A stretch of 52,106 bases of DNA, taken from the IMG/VR virus record IMGVR_UViG_3300020042_009327, positions 1-52,106 of that record; one strand, 5' to 3'. This stretch comes from a virus. Taxonomy: Duplodnaviria; Caudoviricetes. The notes under the pieces were generated by a model. The model had not been told where the DNA came from and did no database searches. It saw nothing but the letters and a program-made list of their open reading frames with translations. Shown piece after piece: positions 2,048-44,865 of the stretch. The stretch's first letter is position 1; each line of letters starts with the position of its first letter. A program made the translations under genes and the position numbers.

Positions 2048-3775
2048 ATGCAAACAACTGAGATAAATGGTTTCTTGATTGACCAATTCAATCAATACAA
2101 GCTTGAAGAAGGGAAGTCGCAAGGTATTTGTCCGTTGTGTTCACCTGATAGAAAGCCTAAAAATGAAAAAGCAAAATGTGCTTCTTATGATTGGGAACGA
2201 GGTATTGGTACTTGTCATAACTGTTCTAAAACATTTCAACTTCATACTTATCAACGCAAAGGTAAAAGTGAAAAAGTATATGTTAAACCTGAGAGAGATG
2301 CGGTTATTGATTCTGGTTTAGATTATCCTTATAATGAAAAAGTATTAAAGTGGTTTAATGATAGAGGTATATCACAAGCAACATTACAAGAATTAAGAAT
2401 ATCTGAGGGTAAAGAATTTATGCCGCAAACTGGCAAAACTGAAAATGCTATACATTTCAATTACTTTGTTGGCGATCAATTAATAAACATAAAATACCGA
2501 GACGGTAAAAAGAATTTTAAATTATATAAAGGCGCTGAAAAAGTTTTTTATAATATAAATAGTATTGTTGGTTATGAGTATTGTGTTATTGTTGAAGGTG
2601 AAATGGACGTCCTTGCATTACACGAAGCAGGAATAACTAATGCAATATCTGTTCCAAATGGAGCAACATTAGGTACAAACAATCTTGAATACTTAGATAA
2701 TTGTATTGATTATTTTGATGATAAAGAAAGAATCATTATTGCGGTTGATTCTGATCCTGCTGGTCAAGCATTACAAACAGAGCTAGTTAGAAGATTAGGC
2801 TCTGAAATCTGTTATATCGCATCGTTTGAAGATTGCAAAGATGCAAATGAATATTTACTTAAATATGGTCCTGAAGCTCTATCACAAAGAATTTCAAGAT
2901 CTAAACCTGTTCCTTTAGAAAATGTTACAACTTTTAGAGATATTGAAGATGAAGTTACGGACTTTGTTCGAAACGGATTCAAACCTGGTTTCCAAGTTGG
3001 CTTGGATAATTTTGATAATATTTTTTCTACGTACACTGGTCAATTCATTACTGTTACCGGTATACCGTCTTCTGGTAAGTCTGATTTCGTAGATCAAATG
3101 GTTATTGGGTATAATGAAAAGTATGGGTGGAAAACAGCTTATGCTTCACCTGAGAATACCCCAACATATTTGCATGCTCACAAGTTAATGCGTAAAACAT
3201 GGCAAGGCATGCCTACAGTAGCAGATATTAAATCTGAAAAGTGGAATCAAGTAGCTGATCATGTTAATGACAATTATTTTTTCATTGATATGGAGCGTTA
3301 TACATTAGATTCAGTCCTTAGAAAAGGAGCAGAGCTTGTTAAACGCAAAGGAATCAAATGTTTAGTTATTGATCCATTTAATAAAGTAAGAGATAACGAT
3401 GCTTCTGGAGATGTAAACGTTTATACATTAGAATATTTAAGTAAGATTGAAATCTTTGCTAAAAAGTATGATGTACTTGTTATGATTGTAGCTCACCCTA
3501 CAAAAATGTATAAAGATACAAAAGGTAATATTGAAGAACCTACTATGTATAATATTAAGGGTGGTGGTGAATGGTATGATGCTTCTTATCATGGTTTATT
3601 AGTTCATAGAAACTATGAAGATAAAACTGTTAAGGTTAAAGTATTAAAATGTAAGTTTCAAAATCTTGGAGAGAATGGTGCTGAATGTCATTTTAAATGG
3701 GAAAGTCAAAGTGGTTGCTTTATTCCTCATATACCAATTGATACTTCTAATGATAAAATGCCTTGGGAAATTTAA
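2048..3775 (+). CDS. Primase-helicase (T7 gp4/Twinkle-like)
   Basis: Zn finger CPLC...CHNC, TOPRIM EGEMD and DSD, Walker A GIPSSGKS, Walker B VIDPFN, VAHPTK. Confidence 0.95.
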   Translation: MQTTEINGFLIDQFNQYKLEEGKSQGICPLCSPDRKPKNEKAKCASYDWERGIGTCHNCSKTFQLHTYQRKGKSEKVYVKPERDAVIDSGLDYPYNEKVLKWFNDRGISQATLQELRISEGKEFMPQTGKTENAIHFNYFVGDQLINIKYRDGKKNFKLYKGAEKVFYNINSIVGYEYCVIVEGEMDVLALHEAGITNAISVPNGATLGTNNLEYLDNCIDYFDDKERIIIAVDSDPAGQALQTELVRRLGSEICYIASFEDCKDANEYLLKYGPEALSQRISRSKPVPLENVTTFRDIEDEVTDFVRNGFKPGFQVGLDNFDNIFSTYTGQFITVTGIPSSGKSDFVDQMVIGYNEKYGWKTAYASPENTPTYLHAHKLMRKTWQGMPTVADIKSEKWNQVADHVNDNYFFIDMERYTLDSVLRKGAELVKRKGIKCLVIDPFNKVRDNDASGDVNVYTLEYLSKIEIFAKKYDVLVMIVAHPTKMYKDTKGNIEEPTMYNIKGGGEWYDASYHGLLVHRNYEDKTVKVKVLKCKFQNLGENGAECHFKWESQSGCFIPHIPIDTSNDKMPWEI

Positions 3776-3778
3776 TAT

Positions 3779-4123
3779 ATGGGTAGTGGATTTAAAAAGA
3801 AAGAAACTGTTGATATGGGTAACTATGCACCCAATGACAGAGAACAAGCCGCTAAAGATTGGTGTATAAAAAATAAAATATTTGTTTCACCAACAGCAAA
3901 GAATGCATCAGAATGGTACCTTACTATTACAAACAATAGTAAAGTAACACAGAGTCCTTTAACTTATAAGAAAGTAGAAATATGGAAAGAGCTTTTTAAA
4001 TTCTATACTTATTATTATGACAAATATAGTGGCGTTGAAGTAATTAAGAAAGTAGAACCTAAAAAAGTTATTAAAGAAGAAATTGAGAAACCAAAACAAA
4101 TTATTAATTATGAACTATTCTAA
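3779..4123 (+). CDS. Hypothetical protein
   Basis: 114-aa ORF tightly packed between the helicase and the thyA-like gene. Confidence 0.7.
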   Translation: MGSGFKKKETVDMGNYAPNDREQAAKDWCIKNKIFVSPTAKNASEWYLTITNNSKVTQSPLTYKKVEIWKELFKFYTYYYDKYSGVEVIKKVEPKKVIKEEIEKPKQIINYELF

Positions 4124-4124
4124 T

Positions 4125-4895
4125 ATGACGCAACAATATGAAGAGCAATATCGAGATCTATTGCAAGAATGCATTCTTACAGGTACTAAACGAGCTGATA
4201 GAACTGGAGTTGGTAGTAAATCAATATTCAATGCTAGTTTAAAAGTTGATGTTTCAAAACATTTTCCTTTGATAACAGGTAGAAAGATGTTTCAAAAAAC
4301 ATTTGATACAGAATTTGAATGGTTTATGAATGGGGAAACAAATACAAAACGATTTAAAGAAGCTGGCGTAAAGATATGGGATGCTTGGGCAGATGAAAAT
4401 GGAGATCTTGGTCCTGTATATGGTTATCAGATGAGAGACTTTAATGGGCAAGGTATTGATCAAATGCAATTATTAATACAAAGTATAATATTAACGCCAG
4501 ACAGTAGAAGACATATTATTAGTTTATGGAATCCTGCACAAATTAAAGAAATGCGATTACCACCTTGTTATTTATATTTTCAATTCTTTATAGAAGGTGA
4601 TAAAATTAATATGTTTGTATTACAAAGATCAGGAGATTTATTTTTAGGCATCCCGTATGATATGGCATTGTTTACTAAAATACTTTTATATATAGCAACA
4701 TTAACGGAGTATAAACCAAATTTGTTAGAGGTACAGATTATTGATGCACACATTTATGATAATCAAATAGAAGCTGTTGATAAATATTTACAACAACCAA
4801 TGTATGTACAACCAACATACGAATATAAATTAAATGAGTTAAAACTAATTAATTATAATCACGGCCCAGTAATTACTGCAAAAGTAGCCGTTTAA
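4125..4895 (+). CDS. thyA: Thymidylate synthase-family enzyme with N177D and H147Y substitutions (possible dCMP methylase/hydroxymethylase)
   Basis: DRTGVG, IWDAWAD, GPVYG, DSRR, PPCY, QRSGDLFLGIPYD, DAHIY, C-terminal KVAV; ATG 4125 directly follows the upstream stop. Confidence 0.9.
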   Translation: MTQQYEEQYRDLLQECILTGTKRADRTGVGSKSIFNASLKVDVSKHFPLITGRKMFQKTFDTEFEWFMNGETNTKRFKEAGVKIWDAWADENGDLGPVYGYQMRDFNGQGIDQMQLLIQSIILTPDSRRHIISLWNPAQIKEMRLPPCYLYFQFFIEGDKINMFVLQRSGDLFLGIPYDMALFTKILLYIATLTEYKPNLLEVQIIDAHIYDNQIEAVDKYLQQPMYVQPTYEYKLNELKLINYNHGPVITAKVAV

Positions 4896-4904
4896 ATCAA
4901 ATTT

Positions 4905-5783
4905 ATGTATTTTATTTATCACATTCCGACTAAAAAAATAGGAGTTACACGTAATCTTAATAAGAGAGTAACTATAGCGCAAGGCTATAAGATTGGAGAA
5001 TACGAAGTTCTGGAAGCATCTGAAGATATAGATTATATATCAAAGAGAGAATCAGAGCTTCAACGTTTATACGGCTACAAGGTAGATCGAGATTCTTATA
5101 AAAAAGTAATTAATAAACCTAAAAAATCAAATAAAATGAAATTAAATGTAACAGATCAAACAACAACATTTCCTTGCCCAGTGAATAAACTAAAAGGACA
5201 ATTAAACGATGCAATTGGATTAACTTTTGAAACTCCATTTGGTAATTATCTATTAAATAAAGAATTGATTACCTGGATAATGAATAATGTAAAAGTTTCA
5301 ATGTTCAATCCTAACCGATGCTTTATATATAATAAAGCCTTACATGAAGCCGTAGCAACCAATTTTAATCCTATTAAGCATATAGAAGAAACACTAGCAC
5401 CTCCAGCAAAAGAACAACCAAATGTTTATGATTTAATAAGAGAGTGGGCTGATGAACGCGGATTATATAGAAACGGTGATGCTAAAACACAATTTGTTAA
5501 ATTACAAGAAGAAGCAGGCGAATTAGCAAGAGCAATACTTAAAAATGATAGAGAAGAATTTATAGATGCTATTGGTGATATGATGGTTGTATTAACAAAC
5601 TTAGCTGCAATAGAAGGATTAAAAGTAGAAGATTGTGTTGTATCAGCATATACTGTTATTAAAAACCGTACAGGTAAAATGGTTAATGGATCTTTTGTTA
5701 AAGATACGGTTTCAAAAACATATAATTCAAATGAAATAAAAATGAATCCATATCCAGGTGTAACAATTAAAACAACTTTATAG
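4905..5783 (+). CDS. GIY-YIG-like N-terminal domain fused to a MazG-like NTP pyrophosphohydrolase
   Basis: N-term YFIY...KIGVT...KR...E; C-term IREWADERG...KLQEEAGELARA...DAIGDMMVVL (EExxE...D..D). Confidence 0.8.
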   Translation: MYFIYHIPTKKIGVTRNLNKRVTIAQGYKIGEYEVLEASEDIDYISKRESELQRLYGYKVDRDSYKKVINKPKKSNKMKLNVTDQTTTFPCPVNKLKGQLNDAIGLTFETPFGNYLLNKELITWIMNNVKVSMFNPNRCFIYNKALHEAVATNFNPIKHIEETLAPPAKEQPNVYDLIREWADERGLYRNGDAKTQFVKLQEEAGELARAILKNDREEFIDAIGDMMVVLTNLAAIEGLKVEDCVVSAYTVIKNRTGKMVNGSFVKDTVSKTYNSNEIKMNPYPGVTIKTTL

Positions 5784-5784
5784 T

Positions 5785-6042
5785 ATGACAGAAAAAAGTA
5801 TTAAGTTTCGAGACCCAGTAGTTGAACGAGTAGTAGATAAATTCATTTCAAGATCTGATGTAGGTTACAAAAAATATGGTGTTACATTAGAACAAGACCA
5901 ATCAAGAATTTTTGAATGGCTTAATCATTTACAAGAAGAATTAATGGATGCTGTTCTTTATTTACAGAAAGCTAAAGAAGTTTATTCAGAAGATCTTATG
6001 GATGCTGTAATAAGAAGAATAGAGAAGAATGAAGAGAACTAA
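5785..6042 (+). CDS. Small all-alpha NTP-pyrophosphatase-like protein
   Basis: GYKKYG...WLNHLQEELMDAVLYL has the EExxD helix of the MazG/dimeric dUTPase superfamily. Confidence 0.6.
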   Translation: MTEKSIKFRDPVVERVVDKFISRSDVGYKKYGVTLEQDQSRIFEWLNHLQEELMDAVLYLQKAKEVYSEDLMDAVIRRIEKNEEN

Positions 6043-6472
6043 AAAGAAAGGACCAGTTGTGTCAAAGAAAGTGGTGTATGATGGCATCACTTTCGCTTCC
6101 GGTCTTGAAAAGTATATGTACAAAGCATTGCAAGATGCTGGTATAAAATTTCATTATGAGTATAAAACTTACGAACTAATACCTGCTTTTAATTTTGATA
6201 ACGATTGTTTTGAAAGGCAATCTAATAGCAAAGGTGATTTTATAAATAGGGGTAACAAGAAAGTACTTAATTTGAAATACACACCAGATTTTGAAGGTGA
6301 AAGTTTTATTATAGAAACTAAAGGCAGAGCTAATGACTCATTTCCTTTACGTTGGAAAATGTTTAAAAAGCACATGAAAGATAATGGTGATACAAGAACC
6401 TTATATAAACCTCAAAAAAATTCTGAATGCGACGAGACAGTACGATTAATCCTTTTGAAACAAAAAGATTAG
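6029..6472 (+). CDS. PD-(D/E)xK endonuclease (T7 endonuclease I/DUF1064-like resolvase)
   Basis: FASGLE, YTPDF and IIETKG motifs. Confidence 0.85.
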   Translation: MKRTKKKGPVVSKKVVYDGITFASGLEKYMYKALQDAGIKFHYEYKTYELIPAFNFDNDCFERQSNSKGDFINRGNKKVLNLKYTPDFEGESFIIETKGRANDSFPLRWKMFKKHMKDNGDTRTLYKPQKNSECDETVRLILLKQKD

Positions 6473-7037: not shown

Positions 7038-8906
7038 ATGAGTTTAAGCCTAGATAAGCAGATCTTAAGTGATATTACCGTATACACAAAGTATGCAAAG
7101 TATGTGCCAGCAAAAGAACGTAGAGAAACGTGGGAAGAATTAGTAACCAGGAATATGGAGATGCACGTGTCGAAGTTTCCACAAATGAAAGAATCAATTG
7201 AACAAGTATACAAAAATTTTGTCTTCAATAAAAAAGTTTTACCTTCGATGCGAAGCCTACAATTTGGTGGTAAAGCTATTGAACTCAATAATGCTCGCAT
7301 TTATAATTGTGCTTTTTTGCCTGTTGATAATATCCGTAGTTTTGCTGAAACTATGTTTTTACTTCTTGGCGGAACTGGTGTGGGGTATTCAGTCCAGAAT
7401 CACAACATTGATAAATTACCTGAAATAAGAAAACCAAACTACGATCGTAAGAAACGTTATGTTGTCCAGGATAGTATTATTGGTTGGGCTGATGCAATTA
7501 AGACATTGTTCAAATCATACACAGGGGAATTAACTTCACATATTGAATTTGATCTTTCTGATATTAGACAAAAAGGTGCATTGCTTGTAACAGCTGGAGG
7601 TAAAGCACCAGGACCAGAGCCGTTAAGATTAGCATTGGTTAAGATTGAAGCTATCCTTCGTGAGAAAGAAGATAGATCTAAATTAACAGATATTGAATGT
7701 CATGATATTCAGTGTCATATTGCCGATGCGGTTTTAGCCGGCGGAATTAGAAGAGCAGCAATGATCTCATTATTTGACTTAGATAGTACGGCAATGTTAA
7801 ATTGTAAAGCTGGTAGCTGGTGGGAAGATAACCCTCAAAGAGGTAGAGCAAATAATTCAGTAGTACTTTTAAGACATAAAATTGATAAGAAAACCTTTGA
7901 CAAAGTTTGGGAGAGAATTGAAGCATCTGGCTCAGGCGAACCCGGAATATATCTTACTAATGATAAAGATTGGGGTACTAATCCTTGTTGTGAAATTGCT
8001 TTACGACCATATCAGTTCTGTAACTTAACAGAAATTAATATGTCTAATATTGAAAGTCAAGAAGATTTTAATGCAAGATCTTCAGCAGCATCATTCTTAG
8101 GTACATTGCAAGCATCGTATTCAGACTTCCATTACCTTCGTGATATATGGAGAAAGAACACAGAAAAAGATGCATTGCTTGGTGTGTCAATGACTGGCAT
8201 TGCGTCTAAATCAAATCTAGAATTAAATTATGAAGAAGCAGCAGAAGTCGTTAAAGAAACAAATAGAGAAACAGCCAAAGCTCTTAATATCAACGCTGCA
8301 GCCAGGACCACCGCAGTTAAGCCTGCCGGAACAACTTCCTTGGTACTTGGTACCTCAAGTGGAATCCATGCGTGGCATAACGACTATTACATTAGAAGAA
8401 TGCGATTAGGTAAGAATGAAGCAATATATACTTATCTTGCAATAAATCATCCAGAACTGTTAGAAGATGAATATTTTAATCCTACATTACAATCAGTAAT
8501 TTCAGTCCCTCAGAAAGCACCAGAAGGGGCTATAACAAGATATGAATCTACATTAGATTTATTAGAAAGAGTAAAGCTTATATCTAAAGACTGGGTTAAA
8601 ACTGGTCATGAGAAAGGAAACAATACTCATAATGTATCTTGTACGGTTTCTGTCAGAGATGATGAATGGAAAATTGTAGGTGAATGGATGTGGGCAAACA
8701 AAGAGTACTATAATGGATTATCTGTTTTACCGTATAATGGTGGTACATATAAACAAACTCCATTTGAGGATTGTACTAAAGAAGTCTATGAACAAATGAT
8801 GTCTACATTAAAAGATGTTGATCTATCAAAAGTAGTGGAAATACAAGATAACACTAACTTTACTGATTCAGCAGCATGCGGAGGAGGTAATTGTGAGATT
8901 GTATAG
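7038..8906 (+). CDS. nrdJ: Class II (B12-dependent) ribonucleotide reductase
   Basis: YNCAF, GGTGVG, TNPCCEI, FCNLTE, VKPAGT, C-terminal CGGGNC; no beta subunit or activase nearby. Confidence 0.88.
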   Translation: MSLSLDKQILSDITVYTKYAKYVPAKERRETWEELVTRNMEMHVSKFPQMKESIEQVYKNFVFNKKVLPSMRSLQFGGKAIELNNARIYNCAFLPVDNIRSFAETMFLLLGGTGVGYSVQNHNIDKLPEIRKPNYDRKKRYVVQDSIIGWADAIKTLFKSYTGELTSHIEFDLSDIRQKGALLVTAGGKAPGPEPLRLALVKIEAILREKEDRSKLTDIECHDIQCHIADAVLAGGIRRAAMISLFDLDSTAMLNCKAGSWWEDNPQRGRANNSVVLLRHKIDKKTFDKVWERIEASGSGEPGIYLTNDKDWGTNPCCEIALRPYQFCNLTEINMSNIESQEDFNARSSAASFLGTLQASYSDFHYLRDIWRKNTEKDALLGVSMTGIASKSNLELNYEEAAEVVKETNRETAKALNINAAARTTAVKPAGTTSLVLGTSSGIHAWHNDYYIRRMRLGKNEAIYTYLAINHPELLEDEYFNPTLQSVISVPQKAPEGAITRYESTLDLLERVKLISKDWVKTGHEKGNNTHNVSCTVSVRDDEWKIVGEWMWANKEYYNGLSVLPYNGGTYKQTPFEDCTKEVYEQMMSTLKDVDLSKVVEIQDNTNFTDSAACGGGNCEIV

Positions 8907-42625: not shown

Positions 42626-43068
42626 CGTGTTTTATCTTTATTAACGTTCTTTATTGCTGATTGTAAAACTGTGTCTGTATATGTTTTACCTCTCATTATA
42701 GTATTTCTTCTTTCGCTTGTCGGTATATCTTCATCTCCAATCATAATACGGTACATTCTACTTATTAGTTGTTTGCACTTGAAAGAGACTTTATATATAT
42801 TGTATTTTTGAGTTGTATGGTTGCGTTTTCTCCAAACCACTATCCACCCTTCTTTTAACAACCTGTCCCAGCGCATCTTATCCCAACTATATGTATAAGT
42901 ACCTACCTCATAATCATGTCTAGTAAAGAAATCTAAACAATCAAAATATATTAATAATTCTAAATCTGCATCAGCAAGACCGTTATTTCTACAAGCCCAT
43001 CTCCTAATTATTCTGTAATGTTTTAATAAACCAGATTCACGTAGGTCACTAGCTTCTAACCGTTTCAT
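42622..43068 (-). CDS. Hypothetical protein, possible winged helix
   Basis: GLADADLELLIYF...RLLKEGWIVVWR...YKVSFK resembles MarR-like wHTH; ATGA-coupled to groES. Confidence 0.6.
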   Translation of the reverse strand: MKRLEASDLRESGLLKHYRIIRRWACRNNGLADADLELLIYFDCLDFFTRHDYEVGTYTYSWDKMRWDRLLKEGWIVVWRKRNHTTQKYNIYKVSFKCKQLISRMYRIMIGDEDIPTSERRNTIMRGKTYTDTVLQSAIKNVNKDKTR

Positions 43069-43328
43069 AATACAACAACTATATCTTGTAGTTTTATAAC
43101 TGTATATTTATTACCTTCAAATTCAATAGTATGGCCAGCGTGTTTATCATAATATATTTCGTCACCTTCTTTAATGACTTTTATTTCATCGCTGATCGAT
43201 ACAATTATTGCTTCTTTATATCTAATATCTTCACTGTCTTTTTCTTTTAAAATAAGACCGTTTTTTGTTTCTTTTGTAGCTTTTACCTTCTTGGGTAAAA
43301 TAACTATATTATTACCTATTGCCTTCAT
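43065..43328 (-). CDS. groES: Co-chaperonin GroES
   Basis: KAIGNNIVILP...TKNGLIL...IKEGDEIYY...EGNKYTVIKLQDIV. Confidence 0.88.
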   Translation of the reverse strand: MKAIGNNIVILPKKVKATKETKNGLILKEKDSEDIRYKEAIIVSISDEIKVIKEGDEIYYDKHAGHTIEFEGNKYTVIKLQDIVVVL

Positions 43329-44865
43329 TAATTCTAAGATTATTGATTACACAATCGGTTGATAAAATAGTTGTAGCAACTGAAGAGGCATTCTTTAATG
43401 CAGACTTTGTTACAAGTAATGGATCGATAATACCAGCTTTAATCATATTAACTGTTTCGCCAGTTATAACATTTAAACCTAAACCTTCTTCTTGTGGTAT
43501 TGGTATTTCAATTCCAGCGTTTGATAATATCGTATGATAAGGAGCTTTGATTGCATCTAGTAATGCCCATTCTCCTTCTGTTAATCCACCAATATACATT
43601 GCTGCGTTTAATAAAGCAATTCCGCCACCTGGCACAATACCTTCTTTAATAGCTGCTTTTGTTGCACATATTGCATCTTCAACTCTATCTGCTTTTTCTT
43701 TTAATTCTATATCAGAACCAGCACCTACTTTTACAATAGCTACTTTACCTGATAATCTTGCTAATCTTCTTTCTAAGCGAATTACTTCTGCTGGATTCTT
43801 AGCTGATTCTAATTGTTTTTTTACTGTATCGATAAGATCATTTACTTCTTGTGAATATTCTCCAACTTGAATAATTGTTTCTACATCGGTTGTTACAGCT
43901 TTAATGCAAGATCCTAAATGTTCTGGAGTTATAAGATCCATATCGTCTCCAAGATCTTCGTTGATAATTGTAGCACCTGTTAATAATGCTAAATCATCTA
44001 ATGTATCTTTTTTATTAACACCGTATGTTGGTGCGTTAATAACATTTGCTTTTAAATTACCTTTAACTTTGTTCATTGCAATTACTGAAAGAACTTGTGG
44101 TTCCATATCTGCAATAATAAGTAATGGTTTTTTTATTTTCATACAGTGTTCTAAAACGCCTTGTATTTGTCTAATATTTTCAACTGGCGATTCAATAATA
44201 AGAACCAAAGCATTATCTAACTCTGCTGCTTTTTTTGATGCATTAGTTACAAAATGTGAATTAACTAATCCTTTATCATATTGAATACCATCAATAACTT
44301 CTATTTCTGTAGCATTAAGATCTGACATTTCCATCATTACAATACCATTGTCACCAGCAGCTCTAAAAGCATCTGCAATAACCTTACCCAATTCAGGATC
44401 GTTATTAACAGATATAGTAGCTACATTATCAATCATATCTCCTGATACTGGTATTGCAATACTTTCTAAATACTTAATTACTTTTTCTGTAGCGCTTTCA
44501 ATACCTTCTTTTATTTCTCTACTACTAGTTCCTTTTGGAAGTTTATAAGCATGATTTAAAATAGAGTGTGTTAATACTGTTGCGGTTGTTGTACCGTCTC
44601 CAGCTTCTTTAACTGTTTTTCTTGCGGCTTCCTTAAGTAATGTTGCACCCATATTTTCAACTGGATCTAATAGTATAATACTATCCGCTACTGTTACACC
44701 ATCTTTTGTAATCACCGGTCTACCGGCTCCATCTTCTAATATTACACATTTACCACTGGCACCAAGTGTTGAACTTACGGCTCTAGTTAATTTAGTAATA
44801 CCTTCGAATATCTTATTCTTTGCATCTTCGCCAAAGTTAAGATTCTTTACGATTGCTTCTGTCAT
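43312..44865 (-). CDS. groEL: Chaperonin GroEL
   Basis: ITKDGVTVA, AGDGTTTATVL, ERRLARLSG, GIVPGGG, GIIDP; no GGM tail. Confidence 0.95.
   Translation of the reverse strand: MTEAIVKNLNFGEDAKNKIFEGITKLTRAVSSTLGASGKCVILEDGAGRPVITKDGVTVADSIILLDPVENMGATLLKEAARKTVKEAGDGTTTATVLTHSILNHAYKLPKGTSSREIKEGIESATEKVIKYLESIAIPVSGDMIDNVATISVNNDPELGKVIADAFRAAGDNGIVMMEMSDLNATEIEVIDGIQYDKGLVNSHFVTNASKKAAELDNALVLIIESPVENIRQIQGVLEHCMKIKKPLLIIADMEPQVLSVIAMNKVKGNLKANVINAPTYGVNKKDTLDDLALLTGATIINEDLGDDMDLITPEHLGSCIKAVTTDVETIIQVGEYSQEVNDLIDTVKKQLESAKNPAEVIRLERRLARLSGKVAIVKVGAGSDIELKEKADRVEDAICATKAAIKEGIVPGGGIALLNAAMYIGGLTEGEWALLDAIKAPYHTILSNAGIEIPIPQEEGLGLNVITGETVNMIKAGIIDPLLVTKSALKNASSVATTILSTDCVINNLRINEGNR

Follow-up and report, generated by a model that had tools for sequence, protein, structure and literature searches.

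Several enzymes of the thymidylate synthase (TS) fold that modify dCMP have been described. The substitution N177D converts TS into an enzyme that methylates dCMP, and the two residues that best tell TS genes of modified contigs from those of unmodified ones are at positions 177 and 147 (PMC8670742). PMC5175136 concurs on the Asp. When T4 gp1 was present in E. coli, five of seven natural Asp177 enzymes, and likewise that of Xanthomonas phage Xp12, gave 5mdC; two of the seven N177D enzymes tested yielded no product (bioRxiv 2024.12.05.627091). The Xp12 dCMP methyltransferase (MT664984.1 45326-46195, QNN97214.1) is a ThyA homologue, and Xp12 is described as deriving thymidine from 5mdC nucleotides (bioRxiv 2024.12.05.627091). 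An acidic residue at position 143 goes with hydroxymethylation and D169N with hydroxylation (PMC13326640). Already published are the Asp177 signature, the role of position 147 and phage enzymes with a natural N177D that make 5mdC (PMC8670742; bioRxiv 2024.12.05.627091), and the gene presented here, called type A, is a further case of this known enzyme class (Xp12; MetaGPA). A literature search that covered few subscription papers found no paper on DNA modification in the present phage group or on its three-allele slot.

The window, which is the whole stretch of 52,106 nucleotides that was analysed, is a 52-kb piece of a phage genome, 82% complete according to CheckV; complete relatives are 61–68 kb. 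It is AT-rich (GC 0.32) and has matches to portal, terminase, GroEL/GroES and a crAss-like muzzle protein. Among named phages, the terminase places the Flavobacterium Elemovirus phages nearest (44.6%), and the terminase matches (n=87) include Cellulophaga, Tenacibaculum and Maribacter phages. The host is therefore probably a member of the Bacteroidota. Lake and freshwater metagenomes make up the runs that hold most of the window sequence, and RNA runs hold only small shares of it. Approximately 770 stored stretches match the primase patterns of the group, in which the gene order is conserved as primase-helicase, 114-aa ORF, TS gene, MazG fusion, 85-aa ORF, endonuclease and reductase. The features of this region in the window are:

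2048..3775, + strand: primase-helicase, upstream anchor of the slot (phrog_239, E 2.8e-86), used for picking relatives
3779..4123, + strand: conserved 114-aa ORF with no family match, a backbone gene, retained where the cassette is missing
4125..4895, + strand: ThyA-fold enzyme, predicted dCMP methylase ("type A"), from PF00303 (E 1.7e-74) and alignments
4557..4571, + strand: Leu145 (= L143), catalytic Cys148 (= C146) and Tyr149 (= H147), invariant in 121 sequences
4635..4637, + strand: Asp171 (= D169) by alignment; Asn in dCMP hydroxylases (PMC13326640)
4659..4661, + strand: Asp179 (= E. coli Asn177), the pyrimidine-selecting position, in the query and 120/120 homologues
4905..5783, + strand: partner gene with an N-terminal GIY-YIG-like region, a middle domain and a C-terminal MazG/PRA-PH part (MazG E 2.5e-6, PRA-PH E 3e-6); predicted dCTP pyrophosphatase
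5785..6042, + strand: conserved 85-aa ORF, a backbone gene, retained where the cassette is missing
6029..6472, + strand: endonuclease/resolvase-like gene, downstream anchor (phrog_190, E 4.6e-11)
7038..8906, + strand: ribonucleotide reductase, probably class II, for dNTP supply (phrog_367, E 1.9e-130; RNR-II insertion domain below cut-off)

The reading frame at 4125-4895 (+) is uninterrupted and encodes a full-length PF00303 protein of 256 aa. An in-frame ATG at 4110 is an alternative start; a protein begun there would have 261 aa, as has the nearest database representative. Residue numbers come from an alignment to E. coli ThyA as encoded in NC_000913.3, with 35% identity between the two proteins. 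The initial annotation had proposed that Asn177 is Asp and that the catalytic PCH is PCY, and both substitutions are borne out by this alignment, in a GAT codon at 4659-4661 and in CCTTGTTAT (PCY) at 4563-4571. The substitutions relative to E. coli are N177 to D179, H147 to Y149, F176 to Y178 and C168 to G170. Unchanged are R21, E58, W61, I79, W80, W83, Y94, R126, R127, L143, C146, Q165, R166, S167, D169, G173, H207, Y209 and the V-A-V C-terminus; these include every catalytic and binding residue that had been named as retained, with Leu143 and Asp169 in addition. The TS fold, the catalytic Cys146 and the phosphate- and folate-binding residues are all present.

L143, C146, Y147, G168, D169, Y176 and D177 are common to 121/121 sequences, these being the query and the best 120 of 7,968 matches, at 67–98% identity. 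Among the viral loci compared (n=80), 53 out of 53 at 52–99% identity have PCY and Asp, and those at 43% identity or less (n=27) have Asn in 25 cases and Asp in two. In cellular genomes 79 of 80 loci have Leu/His/Asn; the remaining one lies on a 2.9-kb contig that bears phage genes and belongs to a Bacteroidetes bin. At the Asp and Tyr codons the contigs of four lake runs have no variant letter, and the listed differences near the Asp codon are third-position changes; Asn was looked for there and among the listed homologues, and was found in neither. The presence of Asp and Tyr in homologues and lake contigs rules out a sequencing error, a strain variant or a chance substitution. Tyr147 marks the type A clade only, as Xp12 has Pro and the type B genes described below have His. 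No cultured carrier of the type A gene was found, the best matches being at 41% identity. Two more, unrelated viral TS lineages with Asp177 were seen (L069:3961-4752 and L076:504-1304), the first of which has PCPT like Xp12.

It had been foreseen that such a gene would be auto-annotated as plain thyA, and this is so, since the JGI names and TIGR03284 both call it thymidylate synthase. It scores 207.9 bits against TIGR03284 (cut-off 108.35) and falls below the cut-offs of seven other NCBIfam TS profiles; the Xp12 enzyme scores marginally below the TIGR03284 cut-off. The residues do not follow these names. In place of Asn177 and His147 of canonical ThyA there are Asp and Tyr, in place of the acidic 143 of T4 gp42-type enzymes there is Leu, and in place of the D169N of 5-hydroxy-dCMP synthases there is Asp. 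Asp177 together with a non-acidic 143 and Asp169 is the pattern of dCMP methylases, and from the combination L143, D169 and D177 the predicted product is 5-methyl-dCMP. A dCMP substrate with methylation as the favoured reaction, as first proposed, thus agrees with the active-site rules in print and with the comparisons made here. The original argument for methyl over hydroxymethyl had been the intact TS scaffold; the preference stands, and Leu143 with Asp169 is the better basis for it, against a hydroxy product as well (PMC13326640). The rule for position 143 is loose, as Xp12 aligns Asn there and Pro at 147.

Among the described systems, the Xp12 enzyme shares the TS fold, Cys146, Asp169 and Tyr176-Asp177 with the window enzyme, belongs like it to a phage with cytosine modification at the nucleotide level, and is predicted to catalyse the same reaction. 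It is however only ~26% identical, lies on a separate tree branch and has Pro147 and Asn143 where the window enzyme has Tyr and Leu. Its neighbours are a dCMP deaminase, DHFR, a HAD hydrolase and a DNA polymerase, whereas the window group has the MazG fusion, and the linked deaminase and DHFR of an Xp12-type module, like a polymerase, were not found in it. The MetaGPA Asp177 homologues share Asp177, an altered 147 and a PRA-PH/MazG-type neighbour (PMC8670742; bioRxiv 2024.12.05.627091), and PRA-PH is enriched in modified contigs there, at 50 versus 179 (PMC8670742). The MetaGPA enzymes that were assayed are deaminase-linked (bioRxiv 2024.12.05.627091), unlike the window clade, which has no deaminase. 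The engineered dCMP methylases E. coli ThyA N177D and L. casei N229D carry the same substitution on a ThyA scaffold (PMC8670742), but the window enzyme is natural and has the extra invariant changes H147Y, C168G, F176Y, K48R/R49K and H51F. T4 gp42 with the gp56 dCTPase resembles the locus in its Asp at 177 and in its nucleotide-level scheme with a pyrophosphatase; it differs in that the window enzyme has Leu143 and the full ThyA C-terminus, and in that a kinase, a glucosyltransferase and an own polymerase were not found in the window group. The RB69 and DLP3 5-hydroxy-dCMP synthases share the TS fold and Asp177 but have D169N and L143E (PMC13326640), where the window enzyme has D169 and L143.

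The position between the primase-helicase and the endonuclease is a slot that can be occupied by different TS-fold genes. In a survey of relatives picked by primase alone, giving 157 loci of which some are from the same contigs, an Asp177 TS-fold gene occupies the slot in 151 (31 of type A, 44 of type B and 76 of type C) and an Asn gene in none. Four of the remaining loci end too early and two are without the gene. Type B genes, which have His147, are ~33–40% identical to the window enzyme, and type C genes, which are short, ~20–27%. In the first 77 classified, Leu143 is found in 38/38 of types A and B, Asp143 in 39/39 of type C and Asp169 in all. The best solved relatives of type C are MilA (6e-20) and T4 dCMP hydroxymethylase (2.5e-17). 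A quick TS tree places A and B as separate, well-supported clades among ThyA sequences and C with T4 gp42, with Xp12 apart. Types A and B are accordingly predicted to be methylase-type, and type C to be a hydroxymethylase-type enzyme like T4 gp42. No close cultured carrier of the type B gene was found, the best match being 47% identical. The cultured Bacteroides fragilis phages OP172667.1-OP172672.1 have a gene 42–44% identical to type C that is annotated as dCMP hydroxymethyltransferase; BF486P2 and BF503P1 are cultured Bacteroides phages with a gene in this identity range.

The types are exchanged between closely related phages. On a primase tree (FastTree, 83 rows) the type labels need at least 16 changes, against a mean of 35.9 when shuffled, and near-identical primases are found with different types, for example L110 (B) versus L107, L108 and L121 (A). 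Asp177 is invariant across the three dissimilar types. Exchange with a hydroxymethylase-type gene, with Asp177 always kept, suggests that the slot gene is most simply a dCMP-modifying one. Of the seven near-complete relatives that have no PF00303 gene, six lack ThyX as well as ThyA, so that an enzyme for dTMP appears to be dispensable in these phages.

The MazG fusion directly follows the TS gene in the window and in 53/53 type A loci, and is absent together with it in L474 and L476. The predicted fold of 4905-5783 (46-row alignment, pLDDT 79) has three parts. The C-terminal part resembles MazG-type pyrophosphatases, including human DCTPP1, all at weak E-values, and has the acidic metal-binding motif along with the MazG-type fold expected of a dCTP pyrophosphatase. 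The protein may therefore hydrolyse dCTP to dCMP, although the subfamily is widespread, in 1,415 phage records, and so does not fix the substrate. For the N-terminal part there are leads only towards GIY-YIG, with T5orf172 on 12–48% of the members of Atlas neighbours and MUG113 at E 0.013 in one relative; the fold comparison gave no PDB match for it, and a single-sequence fold has a pLDDT of 38.6. The dCTPase and DenA-like roles of the partner are presumed here by parallel with T4.

There is exactly one TS-fold gene in 45/45 virus records, including 19/19 of those at least 90% complete. No dCMP deaminase was found in these 45 records, in a search that found Xp12 as positive control, and no ThyX in 21 records. 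Scans of the 50 window ORFs and of 150 further proteins found neither a glycosyltransferase nor a carbamoyltransferase, and the Pfam scan of these 150 (102 of the 105 cluster representatives and 48 of the 132 singletons) had no glycosyltransferase, DNA methyltransferase, DHFR or polymerase. No conserved small P-loop protein was found as a kinase. A search for DNMK was empty in four complete genomes, but also in Xp12, and therefore carries little weight. The missing kinase is a real gap for the best explanation. Twenty-one contigs of 49–71 kb (G007, G014, G017, G035 and 17 others) have the primase-helicase only and no DNA polymerase cluster.

Taken together, the type A enzyme is probably, with a likelihood of about 0.7, a 5-methyl-dCMP synthase that feeds 5mC into the phage DNA. 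With an intact TS fold and Asp177, Leu143 and Asp169, the published rules would have it methylate dCMP with methylene-tetrahydrofolate to 5-methyl-dCMP. The MazG-domain neighbour would cut dCTP to dCMP, at once depriving the polymerase of plain cytosine and feeding the methylase. Host kinases, DHFR, thymidylate synthase and DNA polymerase may supply the remaining steps, as no such phage genes were found. In the phage DNA, 5mC would thereby take the place of much of the cytosine, which would weaken the action of host restriction enzymes. Counting against this are the presence of ThyX in the lineage without a TS gene and the fact that type A is the only TS-fold gene in each record, with ThyX there readable as a replacement source of dTMP.

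Restriction-site content bears on the last step. Phages that carry a hydroxymethylase show avoidance of far fewer restriction sites than do their relatives lacking it (PMC6286503). None of 122 de-duplicated Asp177 loci of at least 12 kb has a wiped 4-mer. L474 and L476, which lack the TS and MazG genes, keep the flanking ORFs and have ThyX, are purged of CCGG and of most GATC; they are 91% identical, thus a single lineage, and are the only control within the backbone. The complete cassette-less genome G101 has CCGG at 0/85 and GATC at 40/372 (both-strand counts). A 4-mer below an O/E of 0.2 is found in one of 22 Asp177 contigs (G005, CATG 0.17), three of which were covered for the first 60 kb only, versus 7/7 near-complete relatives that have no PF00303 gene; six of these seven controls have a different replication module and probably different hosts. 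Nine fragments of undecided TS status were left out of this comparison, four with wiped 4-mers and five without, and one of the latter (G054) carries structural genes of the TS-less group. C/G-containing 4-bp palindromes have a mean of 0.85 in type A versus 0.68 in controls (p 4e-5, from genomes that are not independent). The Asp177 gene thus correlates with kept 4-bp restriction-type words in this group, with one cassette-less lineage as in-backbone contrast. Of the 36 six-base palindromes in the window the lowest are GATATC and CATATG, with 0 of 13 and 1 of 14 expected, and GGTACC is at 5 of 12. Only two enzymes with a non-degenerate 6-bp palindromic site that contains C, EcoRV and NdeI, cut 5hmC DNA completely (PMC7653180 Table S1), and KpnI (GGTACC) cuts 5mC but not 5hmC DNA (PMC7653180). 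The match of GATATC and CATATG to EcoRV and NdeI was noticed post hoc, with enzyme data from 5hmC DNA; Xp12 DNA has no EcoRV site and its NdeI result is inconclusive (PMC7653180). Some TS-less relatives likewise avoid both words, and the window does not avoid TCGA, TCNGA and ACNGT, although these too are cut in 5hmC DNA. In G101 (L536:18726-20000, L537:1-1236) a TonB-dependent receptor gene adjoins the reductase and ThyX lies between two reductase subunits.

The proposal that the enzyme gives restriction-resistant DNA agrees with these counts within the group but not with those of a second set of phages that have the same enzyme type. Small AT-rich phages (G037 and 17 loci, many short and near-identical) with type A and MazG lack CATG in 18/18 and have GATC at an O/E below 0.2 in 16/18. 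The scarcity of GATC would fit 5mC-tolerant enzymes of the MboI type, as MboI and DpnII cut 5mC DNA completely (PMC7653180). The lack of CATG would not fit, as NlaIII-type CATG enzymes are blocked on Xp12 DNA (PMC7653180). The cassette may have been acquired late, the host enzymes may be tolerant, or substitution may be partial or absent; each of these could account for the pattern. In these phages (L044 / G037, L550-L566; 32–40 kb where near complete) the type A gene and its MazG partner are found at several positions, which suggests that the pair moves between unrelated backbones.

The alternative that survives best is that 5-methyl-dCMP is made but substitution in the DNA is partial, or that the product is mainly a route to dTMP via a host deaminase. 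This would agree with the published description of Xp12 thymidine synthesis (bioRxiv 2024.12.05.627091), with the failure to find a phage kinase and polymerase, with ThyX in place of the gene in the cassette-less lineage and with the avoidance of CATG and GATC by the small phages. It is nevertheless unlikely, as the slot swaps with a hydroxymethylase-type gene, which could not give dTMP in this way, no wiped 4-mer is seen in the 122 loci and no phage deaminase in the 45 records.

That the substrate is dCMP but the final base is something other than plain 5mC, either because 5-hydroxymethyl-dCMP is made or because 5mC is altered further on the DNA, is improbable on the residues, as Leu143 and Asp169 are found in all 121 sequences, the gene lies among ThyA sequences far from T4 gp42 in the quick tree, and the scanned proteins include no glycosyl- or carbamoyltransferase. 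The hydroxymethylase-like type C alleles do share the slot, however, the rule for position 143 is a correlation, ORFs without assigned function flank the gene, and the GATC content of the window (O/E 1.03) counts against 5mC, as these sites are kept although MboI-type enzymes cut 5mC DNA.

A divergent but ordinary thymidylate synthase that methylates dUMP, in a dTTP module with the reductase and with MazG serving as a dUTPase, is very improbable: the passed TIGR03284 profile, the AT-rich genome, the single TS-fold gene per record with ThyX in 0/21, and ThyX where the TS gene is absent would suit it, but three dissimilar allele types, one of them like T4 gp42, all keep Asp177, 79/80 cellular genes have Asn, an enzyme for dTMP is dispensable in 6/7 relatives, and the site-avoidance contrast inside one backbone is left unexplained.

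The gene alone is ordinary, as the enzyme class, its signature and the annotation trap are already published. For a widespread group of uncultured phages the annotation would nonetheless be corrected, the "thyA" probably being a counter-defence gene. The slot can further be seen as a natural experiment, with one backbone, three predicted chemistries, a cassette-less control and a trace in restriction-site content. As for 5-methyl-dCMP synthesis in the group as a whole, a wider reading may tentatively be offered, in which these aquatic Bacteroidota phages carry a two-gene cytosine-replacement cassette that depends on host kinases and polymerase. The genome would toggle between 5-methyl- and 5-hydroxymethylcytosine through swaps in the slot, as expected under modification-dependent restriction, and the partner, a GIY-YIG nuclease and dCTPase, would do the jobs of T4 DenA and gp56 in one protein. 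If full substitution does work without a kinase or polymerase from the phage, a set of two genes would be enough for rewriting cytosine in vivo.

Some further features of the genomes were seen. The reductase slot holds either a single gene, probably class II, or a two-subunit class I pair (for example in L025, L027 and L096), independently of the TS type. A 187-aa gene beside the reductase in 12 loci (L031:13057-13620 and 11 others), absent from the window, has a weak DUF6445 match (E 1.4e-4, under cut-off), a family that may resemble 2OG-Fe(II) oxygenases. The window has a GroES/GroEL pair at 43065-44865. Cpn60 is enriched in MetaGPA modified contigs (15 versus 258, corrected p 0.0026; PMC8670742), a circumstantial link to modification. 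At positions 1-1450 of the window, a sigma-factor gene (107-865) and an HTH gene of which the 3' half is present (862-1152) are inverted relative to all relatives; at ~1150 they meet a PDDEXK nuclease gene, likewise as its 3' half, and the ERF gene is missing; this arrangement is likely to be an assembly or amplification chimera.

Two measures fail to separate the groups, CpG content (p 0.1) and, for methyl versus hydroxymethyl, GGTACC, at 0.47 and 0.45 in types A and B versus 0.35 in type C. In the primase-picked loci (L084-L163, L457-L533; not independent), the O/E of CTAG is 0.73 in type A, 0.84 in B and 1.07 in C, and that of GATATC is 0.09, 0.24 and 0.47. The predicted methyl and hydroxymethyl types therefore differ in their CTAG and GATATC content, although the alleles swap.
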